DNA of 32,000 nt from Planctomycetales bacterium. GTDB lineage: Bacteria; 4484-113; JAFGCY01. Below the pieces are notes generated by a model. That model ran no database searches, had not been told where the DNA came from, and worked only from the letters and a program-made list of their open reading frames with translations. The translations under genes and the position numbers were made by a program. Below, piece after piece: positions 7,501 to 15,431 of this stretch (position 1 is the first letter of the stretch; the number at the start of each line of letters is the position of its first letter). The DNA is taken from NCBI GenBank assembly GCA_022646745.1, contig CP060262.1, positions 2,850,001-2,882,000 of the forward strand, in the 5' to 3' direction.

Positions 7501-8130
7501 ATGAACACCGTAAGCGCCCTGGTGGCAACTGCAGCCGTGGCTGCTGCCGCAATAACCGGAGCAAGCATCTGGCTTAGCGGCATTAGGGTCTCAGAGTCAG
7601 ACAACTGGGTTCCGGTTCCGGCCGTCACCCAGGAAGAAGCCCTGGAATTCAAGAAAAGGAAGCGAGAGATGGCACGCAGTTCTGAGGAATGGAAGGATAA
7701 GGTCAAGGACAAGCTCAGTGCCAACGAGATGAATGTCTGCTTTGGTGCAGGTACTGAGCCGCCTTTCACAGGCAAGTACTGGGACCACCACGAGAAGGGG
7801 CACTACGAGTGCACCGTCTGCGGGCAGAACCTGTTCAGCTCTGACACCAAGTACGACAGTGGCAGTGGCTGGCCTTCCTTCTACGATGTGGTAGAAAAGA
7901 GCAACCTCAAGCTGGAGGAGGACCTTTCCCTTGGCATGCGCCGGGTAGAAGTGCTCTGCAGCAACTGCGGTTCACATCTGGGACATGTGTTTGACGATGG
8001 TCCGGAGCCGACCGGCCTGCGTTATTGCATCAACTCAGCTTCGCTCCAGTTTATTGCCGATGATGGCAGCTCTGAGGCTGAAGCCGGACAGGCAGGAGCA
8101 GGTGATCGGGATGCAGGTGAGGAGCATTAG
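7501..8130 (+). CDS. msrB: peptide-methionine (R)-S-oxide reductase MsrB with N-terminal hydrophobic anchor
   Basis: SelR domain: GTEPPFTGKYW, two Zn CxxC pairs (CTVCGQ, CSNCGS), GHVFDDGP, and catalytic Cys in RYCINSASL. The N-terminus MNTVSALVATAAVAAAAITGASIWL is a TM or signal-anchor-like segment. Confidence 0.9.
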   Translation: MNTVSALVATAAVAAAAITGASIWLSGIRVSESDNWVPVPAVTQEEALEFKKRKREMARSSEEWKDKVKDKLSANEMNVCFGAGTEPPFTGKYWDHHEKGHYECTVCGQNLFSSDTKYDSGSGWPSFYDVVEKSNLKLEEDLSLGMRRVEVLCSNCGSHLGHVFDDGPEPTGLRYCINSASLQFIADDGSSEAEAGQAGAGDRDAGEEH

Positions 8131-8192: not shown

Positions 8193-9089
8193 ATGATAAT
8201 CCAGATGCTTCTGACAGGGGTCGTCATCCCTGGCATCGTTGCCCTGGCTCTGGCACTCTTCTTCTGGCCGGCAAGGAAACCGGGAAGGAAGCCGGGCCGC
8301 CTGCCACACTGGATGGGTGGGGTTGTCCTGGCCGTGACTTTCCTGACCGGCTGGATCCTGACCCGGGGCTGGCCTGATTGGCCAGTTCGTGAGTCCGCTG
8401 CATGGCTGCCATGGCTGGCCGTCGGCGGGGCGGTGCTCGGATGGCTGGTTGCTCACCAGCGCCTGCCCGGTCCAACAGTAGCCATGCTACGGATGCTGGT
8501 TAGTGTTGTCACCATCTGGGCCACTACCCAGAGCCTGCAGACCCATACCTGGCAGAAGGCAGCCTGGCTGTGGATAATCGGTCTTGCGCTAGTGCTGTTT
8601 GCCGCGTGGTCAATCTGGGAGTCCGTGCTTGCAAAGCGGCAGGGAGTGCTGCCTCCGCTCCTGCTGACCGGTTTCTTCAGTTGCCTGGCAATCATGGCGT
8701 TGCTGGGCAGGACCGCAACGGTCAGCCAGACAACTGGCATCCTCTGCGCCGGATTGGGTGCCTTTTTTGTGGTGTCATTGGTCAGGCGTGACCTGGATCT
8801 TTCCCAGTCCACACTCTTCGTTGCCATGCCGCTCCTTGCTGGCCTGGTTGTTAACGCCCACTTCTACGCCTACATGGATGTGCTGCAGACCATGCTGCTG
8901 ATGGCATGCTGCCTGGCGGTGCTGCTGGCGGTACGGTTCACGCCAGAGGAGCCGCAGTTTGCCGGACTGCTGCTGGCCCTGCTGATCACCGTCCTGCCGG
9001 CGCTAGGCGGAATCGCCTGGGACCTGCTCAACAGCAATGTCCAGACCAGTTCCTCGGAAGAGGAAGATCCCTACGCAGAGTACTTCTAG
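8193..9089 (+). CDS. hypothetical polytopic membrane protein (about 8 TM)
   Basis: 298-aa ORF that is almost entirely hydrophobic helices, with an acidic C-terminal tail (SSSEEEDPYAEYF). GGAG lies 8 nt upstream of the ATG. No recognisable family motif. Confidence 0.6.
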   Translation: MIIQMLLTGVVIPGIVALALALFFWPARKPGRKPGRLPHWMGGVVLAVTFLTGWILTRGWPDWPVRESAAWLPWLAVGGAVLGWLVAHQRLPGPTVAMLRMLVSVVTIWATTQSLQTHTWQKAAWLWIIGLALVLFAAWSIWESVLAKRQGVLPPLLLTGFFSCLAIMALLGRTATVSQTTGILCAGLGAFFVVSLVRRDLDLSQSTLFVAMPLLAGLVVNAHFYAYMDVLQTMLLMACCLAVLLAVRFTPEEPQFAGLLLALLITVLPALGGIAWDLLNSNVQTSSSEEEDPYAEYF

Positions 9090-9103: not shown

Positions 9104-9631
9104 TCAGAGGCTGGCAATCAGGTGTTCCCGGCAGGACCGCGGACCTGTACGATGCATCAGCAGCAGCGCGGGCCGCAACCGGCCCCTGCGGCTGAGCCTG
9201 ACTGGCAGGATATGGAAGCGGCGCAGGCCGAGCCGCAGTTCCAGCCTGGCAATCTCCACCCGGCTGACGGCAATTCCCTTGGACTGGCAGAATTGCAGGA
9301 AGGCGAGGGCGTCGCGCTCGTGGCGCATGTGGCCTTCAGGCCAGTACCGGTCAGCGTAATCCTCGAAGATGGCCCGGCAGAATCCGGGGTTGCCAAAACT
9401 GCTCTCCGGCAGCAGTTCCAGTACAGCGCGCCAGCGTTTGGCAACAAGGGTCCCGCGCTGGGCAAGCAGGTCCTCCGCGGGAATCGCCAGCAGGGCAGAC
9501 CGGGCTGCCGGATCCGCAGCGTTGTCATCCAGCCATCCTGCCCGGTCGGAGATGAAGCTGCCAAGCCTGCCGCCGTCTGACAGCAGCCGCGCCAGCAGCA
9601 CCTGCTCAGTTGCCAGTTCAGGCTGCCGCAT
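9104..9631 (-). CDS. hypothetical protein; candidate MNIO partner subunit (MbnC/TglI/DUF2063-like by position)
   Basis: 175-aa ORF whose ATG (9629-9631) lies 14 nt inside the 3' end of the DUF692 gene. It is soluble and helical-looking, and ARLELRL loosely recalls the DUF2063 C-terminal region. The partner role is inferred from position only. Confidence 0.55.
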   Translation of the reverse strand: MRQPELATEQVLLARLLSDGGRLGSFISDRAGWLDDNAADPAARSALLAIPAEDLLAQRGTLVAKRWRAVLELLPESSFGNPGFCRAIFEDYADRYWPEGHMRHERDALAFLQFCQSKGIAVSRVEIARLELRLGLRRFHILPVRLSRRGRLRPALLLMHRTGPRSCREHLIASL

Positions 9632-10397
9632 GCAGGGCCTCCAGTTCAGCTATGATCTCCGCCGGCCGGGCCTGGCTGTCATCTCGCTCAAGGATCACCG
9701 CTTCCGGCTGGTGCGATTCCATGACCAGGCCGATCAGTTCCAGCAGGTCCGCCTGCAGGGGCTGGTCGTGGGAATCATGGTAGCGGCCATTGCCATCCAG
9801 CTGGTAACCGACCACATGCAGCTGCACAACCAGCTCCGCGGGGACCAGCTCTAGCCAGCGCTGGGGATCAAAGCCATGGTTGCGCGCATTGATGAACAGG
9901 TTCGTGACATCAAGCAGCAGCCTGCAGTCTGCCCGCCTGCACAATTCCACCAGGAACTCGTTTTCCGGCATGTCACCTTGCAGCCTGATGCTGCTGGTGA
10001 TGTTTTCCAGCAGCAGCGGGCGTTCAAGCCGTTCCTGCAGCTCCTGTGCATTGCTCGCGATGGTCTGCAGGTTGGCGCGTGTCGGGGACAGTGGGTTGAG
10101 GTGCCCGAGGTCGATTCCCCCGGCGCGGGTGAAGGCTACGTGCTCGCTGATCCAATGTGGCTGGCAGGCATCGCAGACCTGCTTGAAGCCCCGCAGGTAT
10201 TCCTCATCCATCGGCCCGGGGGTTCCCAGTGAACAGCTCAGGCCATGCACGAACACTGGGTAGCGTCCGGACAATTCAGCCAGCTGCTGCCTGCCGGAAT
10301 CAAGGAAGTGGTCAGGCACTATCTCCAGGCACTGGATCCTGTCATCTCCAATGCTGATCATACCTGCGAGGTTGCGCCGCCAGCCGATGCCGATCAT
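9618..10397 (-). CDS. DUF692 / MNIO (multinuclear non-heme iron-dependent oxidative) family enzyme
   Basis: TIM-barrel DUF692 motif series: MIGIGWRR, FVHGLSCSLG, ISEHVAF, LLLENI, LLDVTNLFINARNHG, LHVVGY, YHDSHDQPL, VILERDD. I prefer the ATG at 10395-10397, which forms an ATGA overlap with the upstream stop. The longer ORF start at 10436 is a TTG inside the upstream gene. Confidence 0.85.
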   Translation of the reverse strand: MIGIGWRRNLAGMISIGDDRIQCLEIVPDHFLDSGRQQLAELSGRYPVFVHGLSCSLGTPGPMDEEYLRGFKQVCDACQPHWISEHVAFTRAGGIDLGHLNPLSPTRANLQTIASNAQELQERLERPLLLENITSSIRLQGDMPENEFLVELCRRADCRLLLDVTNLFINARNHGFDPQRWLELVPAELVVQLHVVGYQLDGNGRYHDSHDQPLQADLLELIGLVMESHQPEAVILERDDSQARPAEIIAELEALHAAA

Positions 10398-11104
10398 CCG
10401 CAACCCCCGCAACCGCCTCCGCAGCCTCCGCCACAACCTCCGCCGCAGCTGCTGCAGGATGTGCAGCCAGCCACCCCATAGCCACCGCGGCCGTCATTCA
10501 TGCTTGTCACGCTCGACAGGAATGCCATGCTGCCGATTCCCATCAGGATGACCATGTAGGTCCACTTGTGCATGCCATGCTGGATACCGTAGAGGTAGCG
10601 CTCCGCACCGATCAGCAGGAAGAAGCCCAGGCCGATGAAATTCAGCCCGTCATGCTTGCCGATCATCTGCCGCAGGATATGTACGGCGGCCACCATCAGG
10701 ACTCCGATGATGGCGTAATAAACGAGGAATTCCGGACCCTTGAGGAATGGGAACATCAGGTAACTGACCACTCCTGTAGCCAGTCCGACCAGTGCCATCG
10801 ATCCGAAAACGGCACTGGCCCTGCCGGAATCAAACTCTGCAGCTGAGCTCGTTGTTTCCAGCGGTGGCAAGCTCTGGTTCAGTGCCACGGATGGTGATGA
10901 CTGCAACTGGACTATGCCTGGCGATGCCTGAGGTTCATAGGAATGTTCCTCGTGCCATGGAAGTGCTTCATGCAGGCGGAATGTGGCTCCACAGTTGCTG
11001 CACTGCTGCAGCATGCCGGGGAAATGCTTGCTGGGAAGCTCAAAACGCCGCAGGCAGCTCGGGCAGCGCAGGAACTGGTCCTGCTCCCGGCTCACAGCTC
11101 CCAC
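10394..11104 (-). CDS. zinc-ribbon / 4-TM membrane protein with C-terminal Cys-Gly repeat tail; putative MNIO substrate (TIGR04222-like)
   Basis: GTG start at 11104 or 11095. N-terminal CPSC-x17-CSNC zinc ribbon and a Ser/Pro/Gln linker. Four hydrophobic helices, including a GPEFLVYY helix start. The tail is GCTSCSSCGGGCGGGCGGGCGGCG followed by the stop. Confidence 0.8.
   Translation of the reverse strand: MGAVSREQDQFLRCPSCLRRFELPSKHFPGMLQQCSNCGATFRLHEALPWHEEHSYEPQASPGIVQLQSSPSVALNQSLPPLETTSSAAEFDSGRASAVFGSMALVGLATGVVSYLMFPFLKGPEFLVYYAIIGVLMVAAVHILRQMIGKHDGLNFIGLGFFLLIGAERYLYGIQHGMHKWTYMVILMGIGSMAFLSSVTSMNDGRGGYGVAGCTSCSSCGGGCGGGCGGGCGGCG
10397..10465 (-). repeat. coding tandem repeat (TGY GGN GGN GGN) specifying the CTSCSSC(GGGC)3GGCG tail
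   Basis: Minus-strand codons read tgc aca tcc tgc agc agc tgc ggc gga ggt tgt ggc gga ggc tgc gga ggc ggt tgc ggg ggt tgc gga tga. Synonymous codons differ between repeat units. Confidence 0.9.
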
Positions 11105-11838
11105 CTGCCAGCCATGTAATCCAATGCTCCCTGCAGGACGTCCAGCAGCTGCCTGTGCAGCTCATGGATGTCCGCTGATCGATCACTACCTTCGCGCAGT
11201 CCGATCAGTGTGTCGAGCAGGGCCTGTTCTATTCCGAGCTCCCGCGCCAGCAGGGGCGCCTGCAGCCGGCGCTCATCTGGAACCTCGCTGCCTTCCAGGC
11301 GCAGCAGTTCAGCCAGGTCGGCGAAGATACGCGGTACCGCACCACGCAGTATCCGCAGGTATCGCTCCGGCTGGTCCGTGTTCTGGATGTAGGCATTGCC
11401 GAGCCGCATCCAGCTGTTTCGCAGGCCCTGCTCCAGCAGGAACTGCCGGCGAGGGATAGAGACTTCGAAACCACTGAATGGGTCAGTCCCATACAGTAGT
11501 TCATCCCGGCGGGCGATATCGGAGAACTTAAGCGCGAAGGCCTGCATGCTTCGATCCAGGCCCTTGCTGGACAGTACAAGCGGACTGATGTTCAGTCCAC
11601 TGTCCCTGATTGTCTGGGAAATGCTGCGCTGGGCTGCCGCCGTGTTCTGCTTCAGCACAATGAGCAGGTTGATGTCAGAGCTGCCGCGACTGAAGTCATT
11701 GCGGACGGAGCTGCCGTACAACACAAGGCTTTCCAGGTTGTCCCCCAATGAGGAAGCAAATGTATCACGCAGTCCATCCATCGAACTGCGCAGCTGCTGG
11801 GTGATGGGCATGCAAGTAGTGTAGGGGAGTAGCCCCAT
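11092..11838 (-). CDS. nucleotidyltransferase-fold protein (KNTase/MNT-like N-domain plus helical C-domain), degenerate active-site motif
   Basis: LVLYGSSVRNDFSRGSSDINLLIVL matches the pol-beta NTase G-S...D-x-D pattern, except that the second acidic residue is Asn (DIN). Stop TGA at 11092-11094 overlaps the next gene's GTG. An alternative ATG exists at 11811. Confidence 0.7.
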   Translation of the reverse strand: MGLLPYTTCMPITQQLRSSMDGLRDTFASSLGDNLESLVLYGSSVRNDFSRGSSDINLLIVLKQNTAAAQRSISQTIRDSGLNISPLVLSSKGLDRSMQAFALKFSDIARRDELLYGTDPFSGFEVSIPRRQFLLEQGLRNSWMRLGNAYIQNTDQPERYLRILRGAVPRIFADLAELLRLEGSEVPDERRLQAPLLARELGIEQALLDTLIGLREGSDRSADIHELHRQLLDVLQGALDYMAGRWEL

Positions 11839-11901: not shown

Positions 11902-13590
11902 TTAGAACTTGAAGATCCAGTCCAGCTGGATGGTCTGATGATCATCCAGGTTGTTCGGGATCAGGAAGCCGTAGGCGTTGTGCATCTTGGAAAGGATGTA
12001 GGTCACGCCGACGGTCGCGTTCGGGCTCCACATGTACTGCCAGCCCCACTCGAAGGAGTTACGGTTGGCACCACCGGTGTCGCTGTCAGCAAGGCCGTGG
12101 ATCACGGTGTTGGCACCGATCTCCTTGTAACGGGCATAGGTGTACCAGTCACCGCAGTGAGCAGGCTTGGTGCCGTACTGGCCGCCCACGACGAAACCGG
12201 TATCATCGGTGTCCTCGTAGATGAAGCCGGAGGCAAGGCCGCCGTTCACGATGGCGATGTTGGTGTCAGCGTCGCTATCGCAGGTGAACATGTACTCACC
12301 GTAGATGCTCAGCGGCTTGTCCCAGGTGCAGGGCCAGGTGTACTGGAGGCCAGCCTTGGTGACGCTGAAGTTGCTGTTGAAGCGATCGAGGCCGTTGATG
12401 ACGCCGTCGCCGTTGAAGTCGAAGATGCTGCCGTCAGCCAGGGTAAAACCGTTGCCGGTGAAGTAGCTGGCGGGCAGGTTGTTCTCTTCCTTCCAGCCGT
12501 AGCTGCCGACCCACACGTCGAGGTTATCGACGAGGAAGTTGTCGTGACGCAGCTCGGTGGCGAAGAAGTAGGTGTCATCATCGAAGTAGTCGCTGCCGTT
12601 GACCTCAACCGCCACGGAGGCGACGCTGGTCAGCTGGAAGTCCTCGTTGAAGTGGTACATGATGCCGAGACCCTGAAGGTTCACGTCATCGTCGAGGATC
12701 ATCTCGTTCGGGTCGGTCAGGATGTTCGGGAAGATACCACCGTAGATGTCAAGCTTGGCATGGCAGGTGCAACCTTCCTTCTTGCCGCAGCTGTTGCAAC
12801 CGCTGTTGCACTGGCCGCAGCTACCGCCGCAACTGTTACCGTTGCAGCTGCTGCACTTGTCGCAGCAATCCTTCTCGGGGCAGTCCTGGTAATAACCGAA
12901 CCAGCTCGGGCTGTACTTGAAGTAAGCCTGATCGAGGAAGATGTCAGCGGTACGACCGTTGTTACCAAGGGTCCAGTTGCCGCTGGTGGCATCGTTACCG
13001 GTGTTGGTCTCCAGACGGAAGCCAACCATCACGCAGTCGTTGATCTGCTTGTTGTAACCAAGACGGAAACGAATACGCTGACGGAAACGCTCGTTGTTGG
13101 CCCAGTCCTCAAACTGCCAACGGTAGCGCAGCTCGCCCTTCCACTCCGGACCCGGCTTGAGACCGGAGACCTTGTCCTCGAGGGAGCCAATACGGTTAGT
13201 GTTGTCCGCGACACTACCCTCAAGGTCCGTCATGGTGGAATGCATATCGTTCACCTGGTTACCCAGGGCATCAACTTTCCCGCCGAGGCTGGCAAGCTGA
13301 TCAGAGAATTCCGCGCGAAGGGTTTCGGCCATGATGTTGATGTCTTCAGGAGAGCCCTCACCAACCGTGTCCAGCAGACGAGCAATTGCCTGAGCGAACT
13401 CGTAGCGGGTCAGGGTGCGGTCTCCCTTGAAGAATCCATCCGGATAACCTTCGAGCACACCACGGTGCGTAAGGTAATCCAGAGCGTTGTACGCCCAGTG
13501 ATCAGTGCTGACATCGTCATACGCGCTCTGCGCGAATGCCGTACCACACATGATCACCAGAGCCAGCAGTGAAGAAATAAGATATCTCAC
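11902..13590 (-). CDS. SLH-domain outer-membrane beta-barrel porin with coiled-coil linker
   Basis: Signal peptide RYLISSLLALVIMCGTAFA/QS. SLH motif DVSTDHWAYNALDYLTHRGVLEGYPDGFFKGDRTLTRYEFAQAIARLL. A coiled-coil segment is followed by alternating aromatic beta-strand pattern and a C-terminal IQLDWIFKF. AGGAG sits 6 nt before the GTG at 13590; the ORF track's TTG at 13596 abuts the SD. Confidence 0.85.
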   Translation of the reverse strand: MRYLISSLLALVIMCGTAFAQSAYDDVSTDHWAYNALDYLTHRGVLEGYPDGFFKGDRTLTRYEFAQAIARLLDTVGEGSPEDINIMAETLRAEFSDQLASLGGKVDALGNQVNDMHSTMTDLEGSVADNTNRIGSLEDKVSGLKPGPEWKGELRYRWQFEDWANNERFRQRIRFRLGYNKQINDCVMVGFRLETNTGNDATSGNWTLGNNGRTADIFLDQAYFKYSPSWFGYYQDCPEKDCCDKCSSCNGNSCGGSCGQCNSGCNSCGKKEGCTCHAKLDIYGGIFPNILTDPNEMILDDDVNLQGLGIMYHFNEDFQLTSVASVAVEVNGSDYFDDDTYFFATELRHDNFLVDNLDVWVGSYGWKEENNLPASYFTGNGFTLADGSIFDFNGDGVINGLDRFNSNFSVTKAGLQYTWPCTWDKPLSIYGEYMFTCDSDADTNIAIVNGGLASGFIYEDTDDTGFVVGGQYGTKPAHCGDWYTYARYKEIGANTVIHGLADSDTGGANRNSFEWGWQYMWSPNATVGVTYILSKMHNAYGFLIPNNLDDHQTIQLDWIFKF

Positions 13591-13737
13591 TTCCAACTCC
13601 TATTGATAGTGGGTTGAAATACATGCGGGAAGACAGCGCGCCATCCCGACTTGCTCCCTTCGCGAGATCTTCACTCTGGATAACCGGCATCTATAACCTC
13701 AGAAATCCTTCACGCAGATCCCACTTCGGGATTCGCC

Positions 13738-14705: not shown

Positions 14706-15431
14706 ATGTCCACAGCCAGGCAACAGCTGGAGCACGGCAAGGCCCGATCACGCCATGACGGCAACCAGGTCTGGGGACTGCTGATTGTGTTCGTGATCGT
14801 GCTGCTGCTGTGGAACACGGTGTTCATCGCTCCACTCAAGCTGCTGGTGGTGTTCTTCCACGAGCTGTCCCATGCCATTGCGGCCATCATCACAGGAGGA
14901 AAAGTGCATGGGATGGAGCTCAACATCCGCGAGGGTGGACTGACCTACCACTCCGGCGGTAACTTCTTCCTGATCGCATCCGCCGGCTACCTCGGTAGCA
15001 TGCTCTGGGGAGCAATGCTGATCCTCGCTGCCCGATTCGTCAAACGCAGGCAGGTGGTGACCTTCCTGCTGGGACTGGTACTGCTCGGCGCGGGCCTGCT
15101 GTTCATGCGGCCAATCTTCGGCTTCGGCTTCATCTTCTGCCTGGTCGTCGGCTTCCTGATGCTGTTCCTCGCCTCACGGGCAGAGGACGGCTGGCATAAC
15201 TTCCTGCTGAAGCTTATCGGCATCACGAGCTGCCTGTATGCCGTACTCGACATCAAGAGTGACATCCTCGACCGCCCACACCTGCACTCTGATGCCGTCG
15301 CCCTGCAGCAGCTTACCCTGATCCCGTCCGTCGTCTGGGGCGTGCTCTGGATGGCACTGTCCATCGCCTGCACCTGGTGGTGCCTGCGGCTGGCAACCCG
15401 CAGGCGGGCAGGGGACGAGACCGGGGACTGA
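14706..15431 (+). CDS. M50B-like membrane metallopeptidase
   Basis: Polytopic membrane protein with HExxH inside a helix (FFHELSHAIAAIITGG), as in the Peptidase_M50B family. Confidence 0.65.
   Translation: MSTARQQLEHGKARSRHDGNQVWGLLIVFVIVLLLWNTVFIAPLKLLVVFFHELSHAIAAIITGGKVHGMELNIREGGLTYHSGGNFFLIASAGYLGSMLWGAMLILAARFVKRRQVVTFLLGLVLLGAGLLFMRPIFGFGFIFCLVVGFLMLFLASRAEDGWHNFLLKLIGITSCLYAVLDIKSDILDRPHLHSDAVALQQLTLIPSVVWGVLWMALSIACTWWCLRLATRRRAGDETGD

Follow-up and report, generated by a model that had tools for sequence, protein, structure and literature searches.

A membrane protein with a Gly/Cys tail in an MNIO gene cassette: a candidate protein-borne substrate for cysteine oxidation

To our knowledge, the substrates of MNIO (DUF692) enzymes currently known are secreted peptides and small proteins. 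The methanobactin enzyme generates oxazolone/thioamide pairs and TglH excises a beta-carbon, and every characterised 5-thiooxazole MNIO that we are aware of works with a PME-type 1 partner. That integral membrane proteins might also be modified by MNIOs is an open suggestion made for the TIGR04222 membrane proteins, which were described computationally as putative MNIO substrates (Microb Genom 2025, PMC12452194). A second group of systems is that of the captophorins (bufferins, oxazolin and fontiphorin; PMC13097082, PMC11626156), whose precursors are Sec-exported and soluble, with DUF2282 or EGKCG repeats, and are accompanied by DUF2063 partners and often by DoxX. The 5-thiooxazole MNIOs of the BufB/HvfB clade prefer a Cys-Gly dyad (PMC13097082), and SbtM forms the same heterocycle at Gly-Cys (PMC9204691). 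No experimental data on TIGR04222 or on the tail family described here were found in the searched literature.

The window, by which we mean the whole 32,000-nucleotide stretch of DNA that was analysed, carries a cassette of four genes on its minus strand (Table 1), which encode in order a nucleotidyltransferase-fold protein, a membrane protein with a Gly/Cys tail, an MNIO and a partner protein of about 175 aa (PF26136 in the family). This order is shared by 22 loci from Planctomycetales, Verrucomicrobiota and one gammaproteobacterial MAG, among others, and three further loci combine the same scaffold and upstream gene with a radical SAM/SPASM enzyme in place of the MNIO and its partner; the searches sampled single subfamilies, so that these counts are not an unbiased census. 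Wherever sequence upstream of the tail gene is available, the nucleotidyltransferase-fold gene immediately precedes it, and in all 25 clusters (window included) with sequence beyond the tail gene a maturase gene comes next, its start usually overlapping the stop of the tail gene. The membrane anchoring of the tail protein, the nucleotidyltransferase-fold gene, the partner gene and the radical SAM alternative are all absent from the initial annotation of this DNA.

Table 1. Features of the cassette, with positions counted in the window
Feature	Position	Strand	Basis and remarks
Nucleotidyltransferase-fold accessory protein, maximal ORF 248 aa	11092..11838	-	Pfam NTP_transf_2, AF2 fold, Foldseek
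Tail-bearing membrane protein	10394..11104	-	ORF list, homologues; 236 aa from GTG at 11104
Zinc ribbon CxxC...CxxC, residues 11-46	10967..11074	-	Pfam Zn_ribbon_4, E 2.7e-4; predicted cytoplasmic
Four-helix transmembrane core, residues 93-200	10505..10828	-	AF2 helices; conserved GPEFL..Y, R145, R169, GMHKW
Cys/Gly tail CTSCSSCGGGCGGGCGGGCGGCG	10397..10465	-	Proposed substrate region; pLDDT <50, disordered (AF2); family statistics
Dual-use end of the tail gene	10394..10411	-	G-rich Shine-Dalgarno-like stretch in last Gly/Cys codons; ATGA overlap
MNIO (DUF692), 259 aa	9618..10397	-	PF05114, E 7e-70
MNIO partner candidate, 175 aa	9104..9631	-	Overlaps MNIO stop by 14 nt; same-position homologues

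The C-terminal 23 residues of the tail protein (CTSCSSCGGGCGGGCGGGCGGCG) include seven Cys, the last of which is followed by a single Gly and the stop (TGA, 10396..10394, minus strand). The minus-strand codons from 10465 to 10397 are TGC ACA TCC TGC AGC AGC TGC GGC GGA GGT TGT GGC GGA GGC TGC GGA GGC GGT TGC GGG GGT TGC GGA. Translation of this strand bears out the peptide given in the initial annotation, with its seven Cys and terminal Gly, and the codons listed there for the repeat units match the sequence exactly. More than 130 homologues, most of them from a word-seeded search that is biased towards shared tails and that missed the window protein's match to itself, apparently because words from the tail crowded its candidates, share the architecture of this ORF. 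When a tail-less query (the transmembrane core, residues 95-200) was run against all 1.84 billion representative proteins, it returned 25 proteins, nearly all with a tail of the same kind; the rest, few in number, break off inside the tail or ahead of it and look like truncated proteins. With so many homologues, and recovered by a search that leaves it out, the tail is real coding sequence and not chance low complexity.

Across 133 relatives the fixed element of the tail is its end: 126 have CGGCG within the last 10 residues, with one to five residues after the last Cys, and in 7 of the 126 this motif is the extreme terminus. The rest is variable, as the number of Cys per tail runs from 2 to 8 and so do the gaps between Cys other than those of the terminal CGGCG. 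The CGGG period singled out in the initial annotation is thus no feature of the family, and the idea of a core-like substrate for the maturase must do without it; that idea retains the support of the gene linkage and of the residues that flank the Cys. Family-wide, the residue after a tail Cys is Gly in 551 cases and Ser in 130, and the residue before it Gly in 470 and Ser in 193; five of the seven Cys of the window tail precede a Gly. With these Gly/Ser neighbours, the tail Cys stand in the context used by the closest characterised enzymes, Cys-Gly (PMC13097082) and Gly-Cys (PMC9204691). Conservation on this scale supports the view, also put forward in the initial annotation, that selection acts on the peptide sequence of the tail.

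The start of the tail protein may lie slightly further in, as an alternative GTG at 11095 gives 233 aa, the length called in ENA contigs from the same organism, and creates a GTGA overlap with the stop of the upstream gene. A look-up of the exact 236-aa form found no database record. In the AF2 model, the zinc ribbon folds into four beta strands (residues 11-43, pLDDT ~90), and the transmembrane core consists of four helices (93-120, 123-148, 152-175 and 182-200; pLDDT >90). A Foldseek search of the PDB with this model found no structural relatives (best E 0.73), and some homologues have an ankyrin-repeat variant of the N-terminus. A zinc ribbon on the cytoplasmic side followed by four confidently modelled transmembrane helices would bring the C-terminal tail to the cytoplasmic face as well. 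The positive-inside count does not decide the topology (K+R averages of 2.0 vs 2.05 in the two main loops), and it counts against a cytoplasmic tail that the tails of TIGR04222 proteins were placed in the periplasm (PMC12452194).

With the TIGR04222 proteins, the window protein has in common its nature as a membrane protein with a 'GPxFLxFY' N-terminal helix and a disordered Gly/Ser/Cys tail that ends in CGGCG, as well as the MNIO and non-DUF2063 (PME-type 2) partner that often follow; the C-terminal Gly/Ser/Cys low complexity that marks TIGR04222 proteins is present in the window tail. However, the window protein, like P0001, P0005, P0015, P0019, P0023 and P0119, has no match to the TIGR04222 HMM (cutoff 43 bits) even at E <= 10, against 84-103 bits for the controls P0103, P0109 and P0111. 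With tails removed, hhalign reaches 95% probability over only 32 columns, those of the GPxFL helix. We take this as a sign of a distant relation or of a shared module rather than of membership. The window family also lacks the ~130-aa central domain of TIGR04222, carries a zinc ribbon in many members and a conserved GMHK(F/W) loop, and differs by the upstream nucleotidyltransferase-fold gene and, in some loci, by the radical SAM alternative. The captophorins offer the nearest MNIO clade and Cys in small-residue contexts, and by this likeness a 5-thiooxazole and Cu(I) binding would be the expected outcome; unlike their precursors, the window protein is membrane-anchored, has no apparent signal peptide, is encoded with another kind of partner and probably exposes its tail to the cytoplasm. 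No Pfam or NCBIfam match to a DUF2282, Buf_6-12Cys or EGKCG precursor was found in the tail protein, whose N-terminus is the hydrophilic zinc ribbon. In the methanobactin system (MbnA/MbnB/MbnC), an MNIO likewise acts on Cys to form a copper-binding heterocycle plus sulfur ligand, but the precursor is a small secreted peptide and not a 236-aa membrane protein, the window MNIO is distant from MbnB, and an MbnC-like match was not obtained.

The window MNIO matches PF05114 over profile positions 2-260 of 263 (235.7 bits, cutoff 25) and shares 43-67% identity with its counterparts in the other cassettes. BufB (NF050167) is its top NCBIfam match, yet at 201.5 bits it lies below the cutoff of 310, as do HvfB (NF003818; 171.4 bits, cutoff 360) and the MbnB equivalog (68.9 bits, cutoff 325), and the enzyme stays below every NCBIfam equivalog cutoff. 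Against the PDB it matches 3BWW (E 2.4e-27), TglH (1.5e-16) and MbnB (4.5e-9), and in an alignment with these three it keeps the iron-ligand motifs vHG, SEH, lEN, lDvtN, lHVvG, hDsHD and lERD, at positions that we take, from MbnB structures, to be the ligands. The 175-aa partner has no Pfam or NCBIfam match of its own; it shares 28-50% identity with the proteins encoded at this position elsewhere, in which PF26136 (SCO6045_C) is found. It does not belong to the DUF2063/PME-type 1 proteins, and a profile search against PDB sequences yielded no relatives (best, a XerC-like protein at E 0.34).

The fourth protein of the cassette, listed in databases in a 239-aa form (P0134, start 11811), just exceeds the cutoff for NTP_transf_2 (PF01909; 21.5 bits vs 21). 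Its AF2 model (pLDDT 85.5) matches AadA/ANT(3'')(9), ANT(4') and ANT(9) in Foldseek (E 2.5e-6, TMq 0.54-0.58), with which it shares a two-domain fold made of a Pol-beta nucleotidyltransferase domain and a helical domain. Identity to these enzymes is 12-16%, and the window-family protein is tied to the tail gene and not to resistance contexts. The catalytic signature hG[GS]x9-13Dh[DE]h plus third carboxylate is not found in the window protein, which reads GS...SDIN. In 24 of 26 family members Asn takes the place of the second catalytic Asp, and in the window clade, the window protein included, the third carboxylate present in most relatives is replaced by Ser. Its constant link with the tail gene puts the protein forward as a new candidate for an accessory factor in this type of maturation.

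The radical SAM/SPASM enzymes of the three alternative loci have the thio(seleno)oxazole maturase SbtM as their second- and fourth-best NCBIfam matches. Those of L016 and L017 score 113 and 131 bits against SbtM (TIGR04082, cutoff 350) and are not SbtM members; their top match is the ACGX-system radical SAM enzyme (142-143 bits, cutoff 400), and PapB/StsB-type thioether maturases are also among the scoring matches. The likeness to SbtM/SbtMa, in which a radical SAM/SPASM enzyme turns the Cys of Gly-Cys into a thiooxazole, lies in the related enzyme that stands in for the MNIO at the three loci, and the difference in the lack of selenocysteine at the tail-family loci and in a substrate that is a membrane protein. 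The ACGX-repeat (TIGR04340) and Cys-Xaa-Xaa-Xaa (TIGR04117) targets resemble the tail in having short-period Cys repeats beside a radical SAM/SPASM enzyme, and a TIGR04222 tail matches TIGR04117 weakly; scores here are far below cutoff, however, and those targets are small soluble peptides predicted in NCBIfam. The interchange of MNIO and radical SAM enzymes on one scaffold provides a natural experiment in convergent aerobic vs anaerobic cysteine-to-heterocycle chemistry.

On balance, and by a modest measure, we think it probable that the tail serves as a protein-borne substrate and undergoes oxidation of its Gly-Cys-Gly units, most likely to 5-thiooxazoles, which would give a membrane-tethered, cytoplasm-facing, metal-binding tail. 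The four genes form a tightly coupled operon, and the precursor would be a whole membrane-anchored protein, with the tail as its substrate region, and not a free peptide. The zinc ribbon and the four helices would present disordered (Gly/Ser)n-Cys repeats, closed by CGGCG, at the cytoplasmic membrane face, where the MNIO would oxidise the Gly-Cys-Gly units with the partner's help. The most likely product would be a 5-thiooxazole formed from Cys and the preceding Gly carbonyl, as in captophorins and bufferins, and the resulting row of thiolate-bearing heterocycles, kept on the membrane protein, could bind soft metals, Cu(I) for example. In some lineages, the radical SAM/SPASM enzyme would plausibly yield this product, or one equivalent to it, without O2. 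Against this reading weigh the MNIO scores below the equivalog cutoffs, a partner other than PME-type 1, the radical SAM scores far below the SbtM and ACGX cutoffs, and the Sec export of known captophorins, since this tail would remain in the cell. If the tail is indeed cytoplasmic and binds copper, it would suggest intracellular, membrane-tethered copper buffering or handover, unlike the periplasmic bufferins. It is tempting, though doubtful as a whole, to go further and regard the cassette as an undescribed four-gene module in which a cytoplasmic, CGGCG-tailed membrane scaffold acquires the same thiooxazole-type heterocycles from an MNIO and partner (with O2) or from a radical SAM enzyme (without O2), a catalytically degenerate nucleotidyltransferase-fold protein, always present, being a new third component. 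Such a module would be the first case of a captophorin-like modification kept on an integral membrane protein within the cell, and might feed or sense soft metals via the conserved Met/His-bearing transmembrane core. The tail family would in any event make a compact test case, as its four genes include neither exporter nor protease and its tail has 23-40 residues.

Several other readings of the tail have to be set against that of a thiooxazole-bearing protein. The tail might be an MNIO substrate with a different product, such as oxazolone/thioamide pairs, beta-carbon excision, Cys crosslinks or, at the radical SAM loci, thioether bridges. We hold this to be unlikely, even though the MNIO falls short of the BufB and HvfB cutoffs and also matches TglH and MbnB, the partner is of the SCO6045_C/PME-type 2 kind seen in pearlin and aminopyruvatide clusters (PMC12452194), and the radical SAM enzymes are best matched by the uncharacterised ACGX-system enzyme, with PapB/StsB-type enzymes scoring too. 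By sequence, the MNIO has its nearest neighbours in the 5-thiooxazole clade; TglH modifies a C-terminal Cys while here at least one residue follows the last Cys, Gly-only neighbours offer no side chain for crosslinks, and the interchange with radical SAM enzymes fits a reaction known from both enzyme families. A tail that stays unmodified, as a metallothionein-like, Fe-S- or Zn-binding or redox-active Cys cluster beside an MNIO with another substrate, seems improbable. Its composition (57% Gly, 24% Cys and 16% Ser in the family) would make a plausible flexible set of thiolate ligands, and one third of the genomes that bear TIGR04222 genes are without any MNIO (PMC12452194). The constant position of a maturase gene after the tail gene speaks against such a tail, as does the alternation of two unrelated families of Cys-directed maturases at that position; moreover, the cassette has no further small Cys-rich ORF that is conserved.

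MNIO and radical SAM/SPASM enzymes typically mature RiPPs, and an M50B peptidase gene lies ~3.6 kb away (14706..15431), so the tail could also be thought of as a RiPP core that is cut off and then released or exported, the membrane domain being an oversized leader or an export device. This seems highly improbable, given that the M50B gene is common only to L015, a close syntenic relative, that the cassettes of different phyla have no protease or transporter in common, and that in L020 the four cassette genes stand alone between gyrB and gyrA. The good conservation of the transmembrane core and its polar motifs suggest, moreover, that this domain has its own function. The least credible reading, and one already disfavoured, is that the tail is incidental low complexity kept mainly as a G-rich ribosome-binding site for the next gene. 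In the window, the tail-gene TGA overlaps the MNIO start as ATGA (ATG = 10397..10395), and GGGGGT stands 5 nt upstream of this ATG (10403..10408). In favour of the reading, 11 of 23 loci use GGA for the Gly behind the last Cys, and 14 of the 23 have a GGAG/GAGG/AGGA core <=16 nt from the tail-gene stop. The overlap with the DUF692 ATG and the G-rich Gly codons at its expected Shine-Dalgarno site, both pointed out in the initial annotation, are supported in this way. But a ribosome-binding site takes ~6 nt and not 20-40 residues, the number and context of the Cys are kept across phyla despite differing codon usage, and the same tail occurs where a spacer precedes the next gene (L001, L002 and L021-L023).

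At the nucleotide level, a plus-strand ORF at 10245..10481 (PPQPPPQ...) was rejected as a mirror image of the Gly/Cys codons. The DNA repeat within the tail is weak (Tandem Repeats Finder: period 12, 2.9 copies, 78% matches, score 42). The proposal in the initial annotation that its codons are diversified to avoid slippage is weakly supported, the figures being marginal. None of the 8 adjacent Gly codon pairs in the window tail is identical (P = 0.046), codon identity from unit to unit is not below that of random codon draws (P = 0.29), and 36 of 116 adjacent Gly codons pooled over 10 loci are identical, against 46 expected (z = -2.0).

Comparative sequence data indicate that the Cys/Gly tail belongs to a real, conserved, and uncharacterised system, a variant of the MNIO-substrate systems. 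The window is part of a Planctomycetales MAG. The description of the tail in the initial annotation proved exact, and the surrounding features are collected below.

Features of the tail locus, its neighbours, and radical-SAM-coupled relatives
Feature	Position	Strand	Remarks
Cys/Gly tail	10465..10397	minus	Translation CTSCSSCGGGCGGGCGGGCGGCG, then TGA
Tail-bearing ORF	10394..11104	minus	236 aa, GTG start; tail is its C-terminal end
Nucleotidyltransferase-fold protein	11092..11838	minus	Upstream of tail gene; not considered in the initial annotation
MNIO	9618..10397	minus	Downstream of tail gene; PF05114, E 7e-70
Candidate partner	9104..9631	minus	175 aa, after MNIO gene; homologous to same-position proteins of other loci
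SLH-domain porin	11902..13596	minus	Pfam SLH and Porin_5
Methionine sulfoxide reductase B	7501..8130	plus	SelR domain, N-terminal membrane anchor
Multi-pass membrane protein	8193..9089	plus	298 aa, without family match
Radical-SAM-coupled tail proteins	L016:5714-6346, L017:5713-6279, L026:4201-4770		

The tail was compared among 133 proteins, of which 118 came from a word-seeded search biased to shared tails and 25 from an exhaustive search that used a tail-less query (10 of these were already among the 118). CGGCG lies in the last 10 residues of 126/133, with 0-5 residues after it (usually G, GS, S or D). The final Cys-Cys gap is 2 throughout, and the other gaps range from 2 to 8 (mode 3-4), with 2-8 Cys per tail (mode 5-6). 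Gly makes up 57% of the tails, Cys 24%, and Ser 16%; the residue after a Cys is Gly (551) or Ser (130) and the residue before it Gly (470) or Ser (193). The comparison points clearly to selection at the peptide level, as had been proposed, and speaks against the rival reading as incidental low complexity. The proposed CGGG periodicity was not recovered: comparison of homologous tails showed a conserved terminal CGGCG but variable spacing elsewhere, and the conserved design is Cys within Gly/Ser plus that terminal motif. P0105, P0112, and P0114 (database proteins of 291-332 aa), which are outside the tail-protein family and not obviously TIGR04222, also end in (C[GS]n)k-CGGCG, so the tail may be a portable module carried on several scaffolds.

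The argument that codons were diversified to avoid slippage-prone identity is weak. Of the 8 adjacent Gly-Gly codon pairs in the window tail, 0 are identical where 32% would be expected (P = 0.046), differences among the three CGGG units do not exceed those of random synonymous draws (P = 0.29), and ten other loci pooled give 36/116 against 46.2 expected (z = -2.0); on these results avoidance is a weak trend at best. The accompanying remark on the ribosome-binding site holds up. The last Cys is followed by Gly encoded as GGA in 11/23 loci (binomial P 0.0006-0.015 at a background of 17-25%), a GGAG/GAGG/AGGA core lies <=16 nt from the stop in 14/23, and most loci overlap stop and start as ATGA, TGATG or TAATG; in the window, the TGA of the tail gene shares bases with the MNIO ATG (ATGA). 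At the other end of the gene, ENA contigs of the same organism carry a 233-aa call from the GTG at 11095, which forms a GTGA overlap with the stop of the upstream gene. A plus-strand ORF at 10245..10481 (...PPQPPPQPPPQPPPQ...) was rejected as a reverse-complement shadow of the Gly/Cys codons.

An AlphaFold2 model built with an alignment of 40 sequences resolved four parts of the tail protein: a four-stranded CxxC...CxxC zinc ribbon (residues 11-46; Pfam Zn_ribbon_4), a disordered linker, a core of four helices (93-120, 123-148, 152-175, and 182-200; pLDDT >90), and the disordered tail (pLDDT <50). A PDB search found no structural relative of the core, in which relatives keep GPEFL..Y, R145, R169, and GMHK(W/F); we speculate that its conserved Met, His, Glu, and Arg hint at a role beyond anchoring. 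The N-terminal domain varies, with ankyrin repeats replacing the zinc ribbon in P0002 (L020:3224-6061, JGI Ga0394880_0002579), and short forms have three helices and lack this domain. As an N-terminal domain, presumably cytoplasmic, precedes four helices, the tail is predicted to be cytoplasmic; loop charge counts favour neither topology.

The order nucleotidyltransferase-fold gene, tail gene, MNIO, and partner recurs, where contigs allow, in 22 loci including the window, drawn from Verrucomicrobiota MAGs, a gammaproteobacterial MAG, a related planctomycete-like genome, and unassigned metagenome contigs. The four-gene cassette of locus L020 lies between gyrB and gyrA in the company of several toxin-antitoxin genes, suggesting that it is mobile as a whole. 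The window MNIO best matches BufB (201 bits) and HvfB (171 bits) in NCBIfam, both under cutoff, and 3BWW, TglH, and MbnB, in that order, in the PDB; its metal-ligand motifs align. The 175-aa protein has no family match of its own; its same-position homologues bear PF26136 SCO6045_C. The upstream protein, 100% identical to database protein P0134, is modelled as an ANT/KNTase-like two-domain nucleotidyltransferase fold (pLDDT 85.5; Foldseek against AadA, E 2.5e-6, TMq up to 0.58), in a family for which 5.8 billion sequences yielded only 19 protein clusters. The catalytic motif is degenerate: since Asn replaces the second catalytic Asp (SD-x-N for D-x-D/E) in 24/26 members and the window clade has Ser or Ala at the third carboxylate position, the protein may be a pseudo-enzyme, and it may act as a non-catalytic recognition or assembly factor. 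A literature search found no paper linking a nucleotidyltransferase to MNIO-substrate tail systems.

Three further loci (L016, L017, and L026) keep the upstream gene and the zinc-ribbon/four-helix/CGGCG-tail protein and carry a radical SAM/SPASM gene instead of the MNIO and partner. Its top NCBIfam match is an uncharacterised ACGX-system enzyme (~143 bits in L016 and L017), with the thio(seleno)oxazole maturase SbtM fourth in L016 and second in L017 (113-131 bits), all far under cutoff. The GMHK(F/W) loop reads GMHNF, GMSNF or GMSDF in their tail proteins, loss of Lys (and of His in two of three) tracking the change of maturase. Of the evidence available, the alternation of two unrelated Cys-directed maturase families behind an invariant tail argues most strongly for the tail as their substrate. 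The core proposal of the initial annotation, that the tail Cys are MNIO substrates, is plausible and has support from the comparisons, with heterocyclisation as the putative chemistry. The nearest characterised MNIOs install 5-thiooxazoles, preferring a Cys-Gly dyad (PMC13097082), and at Gly-Cys that ring is also the product of SbtM (PMC9204691). Given the alternation and a Gly-Cys-Gly context that fits both preferences, the tail Cys would be converted to 5-thiooxazoles by whichever maturase is present. Rival readings, besides incidental low complexity, are another MNIO chemistry on the tail and an unmodified thiolate cluster. In a further alternative the tail is a released RiPP; neighbourhoods of the 22 loci showed no conserved protease or transporter. 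Under the 5-thiooxazole proposal the modified protein would remain in the membrane as a tethered soft-metal ligand array.

The idea that membrane protein tails may serve as MNIO substrates has been published: TIGR04222 membrane proteins, which bear Gly/Ser/Cys tails at the C-terminus, were proposed, by bioinformatics only, as substrates with PME-type 2 partners (PMC12452194). The window family lies outside TIGR04222, since it gave no HMM match at E <= 10 while controls scored 84-103 bits; in profile-profile comparison the first helix alone aligns. It may overlap the 'adjamnio-I' cluster of that study, and a literature search found no paper testing tail systems of either family.

Among the neighbours, the two plus-strand genes converge on the cassette. 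The 298-aa gene also adjoins it in L015, but this genome is so closely related that the linkage is uninformative. The SLH-domain porin carries an insert of ~40 residues with 14 Cys (~12763..12885, CPEKDCCDKCSSCNGNSCGGSCGQCNSGCNSCGKKEGCTC), conserved in L015 (L015:3211-4899; 63% related), for which a second maturase substrate, a structural disulfide or a metal knot are candidate readings. The porin gene is split into two calls in L013 and L014, both ENA assemblies of the same organism, and in L013, the one inspected, a frameshift falls just after the insert.
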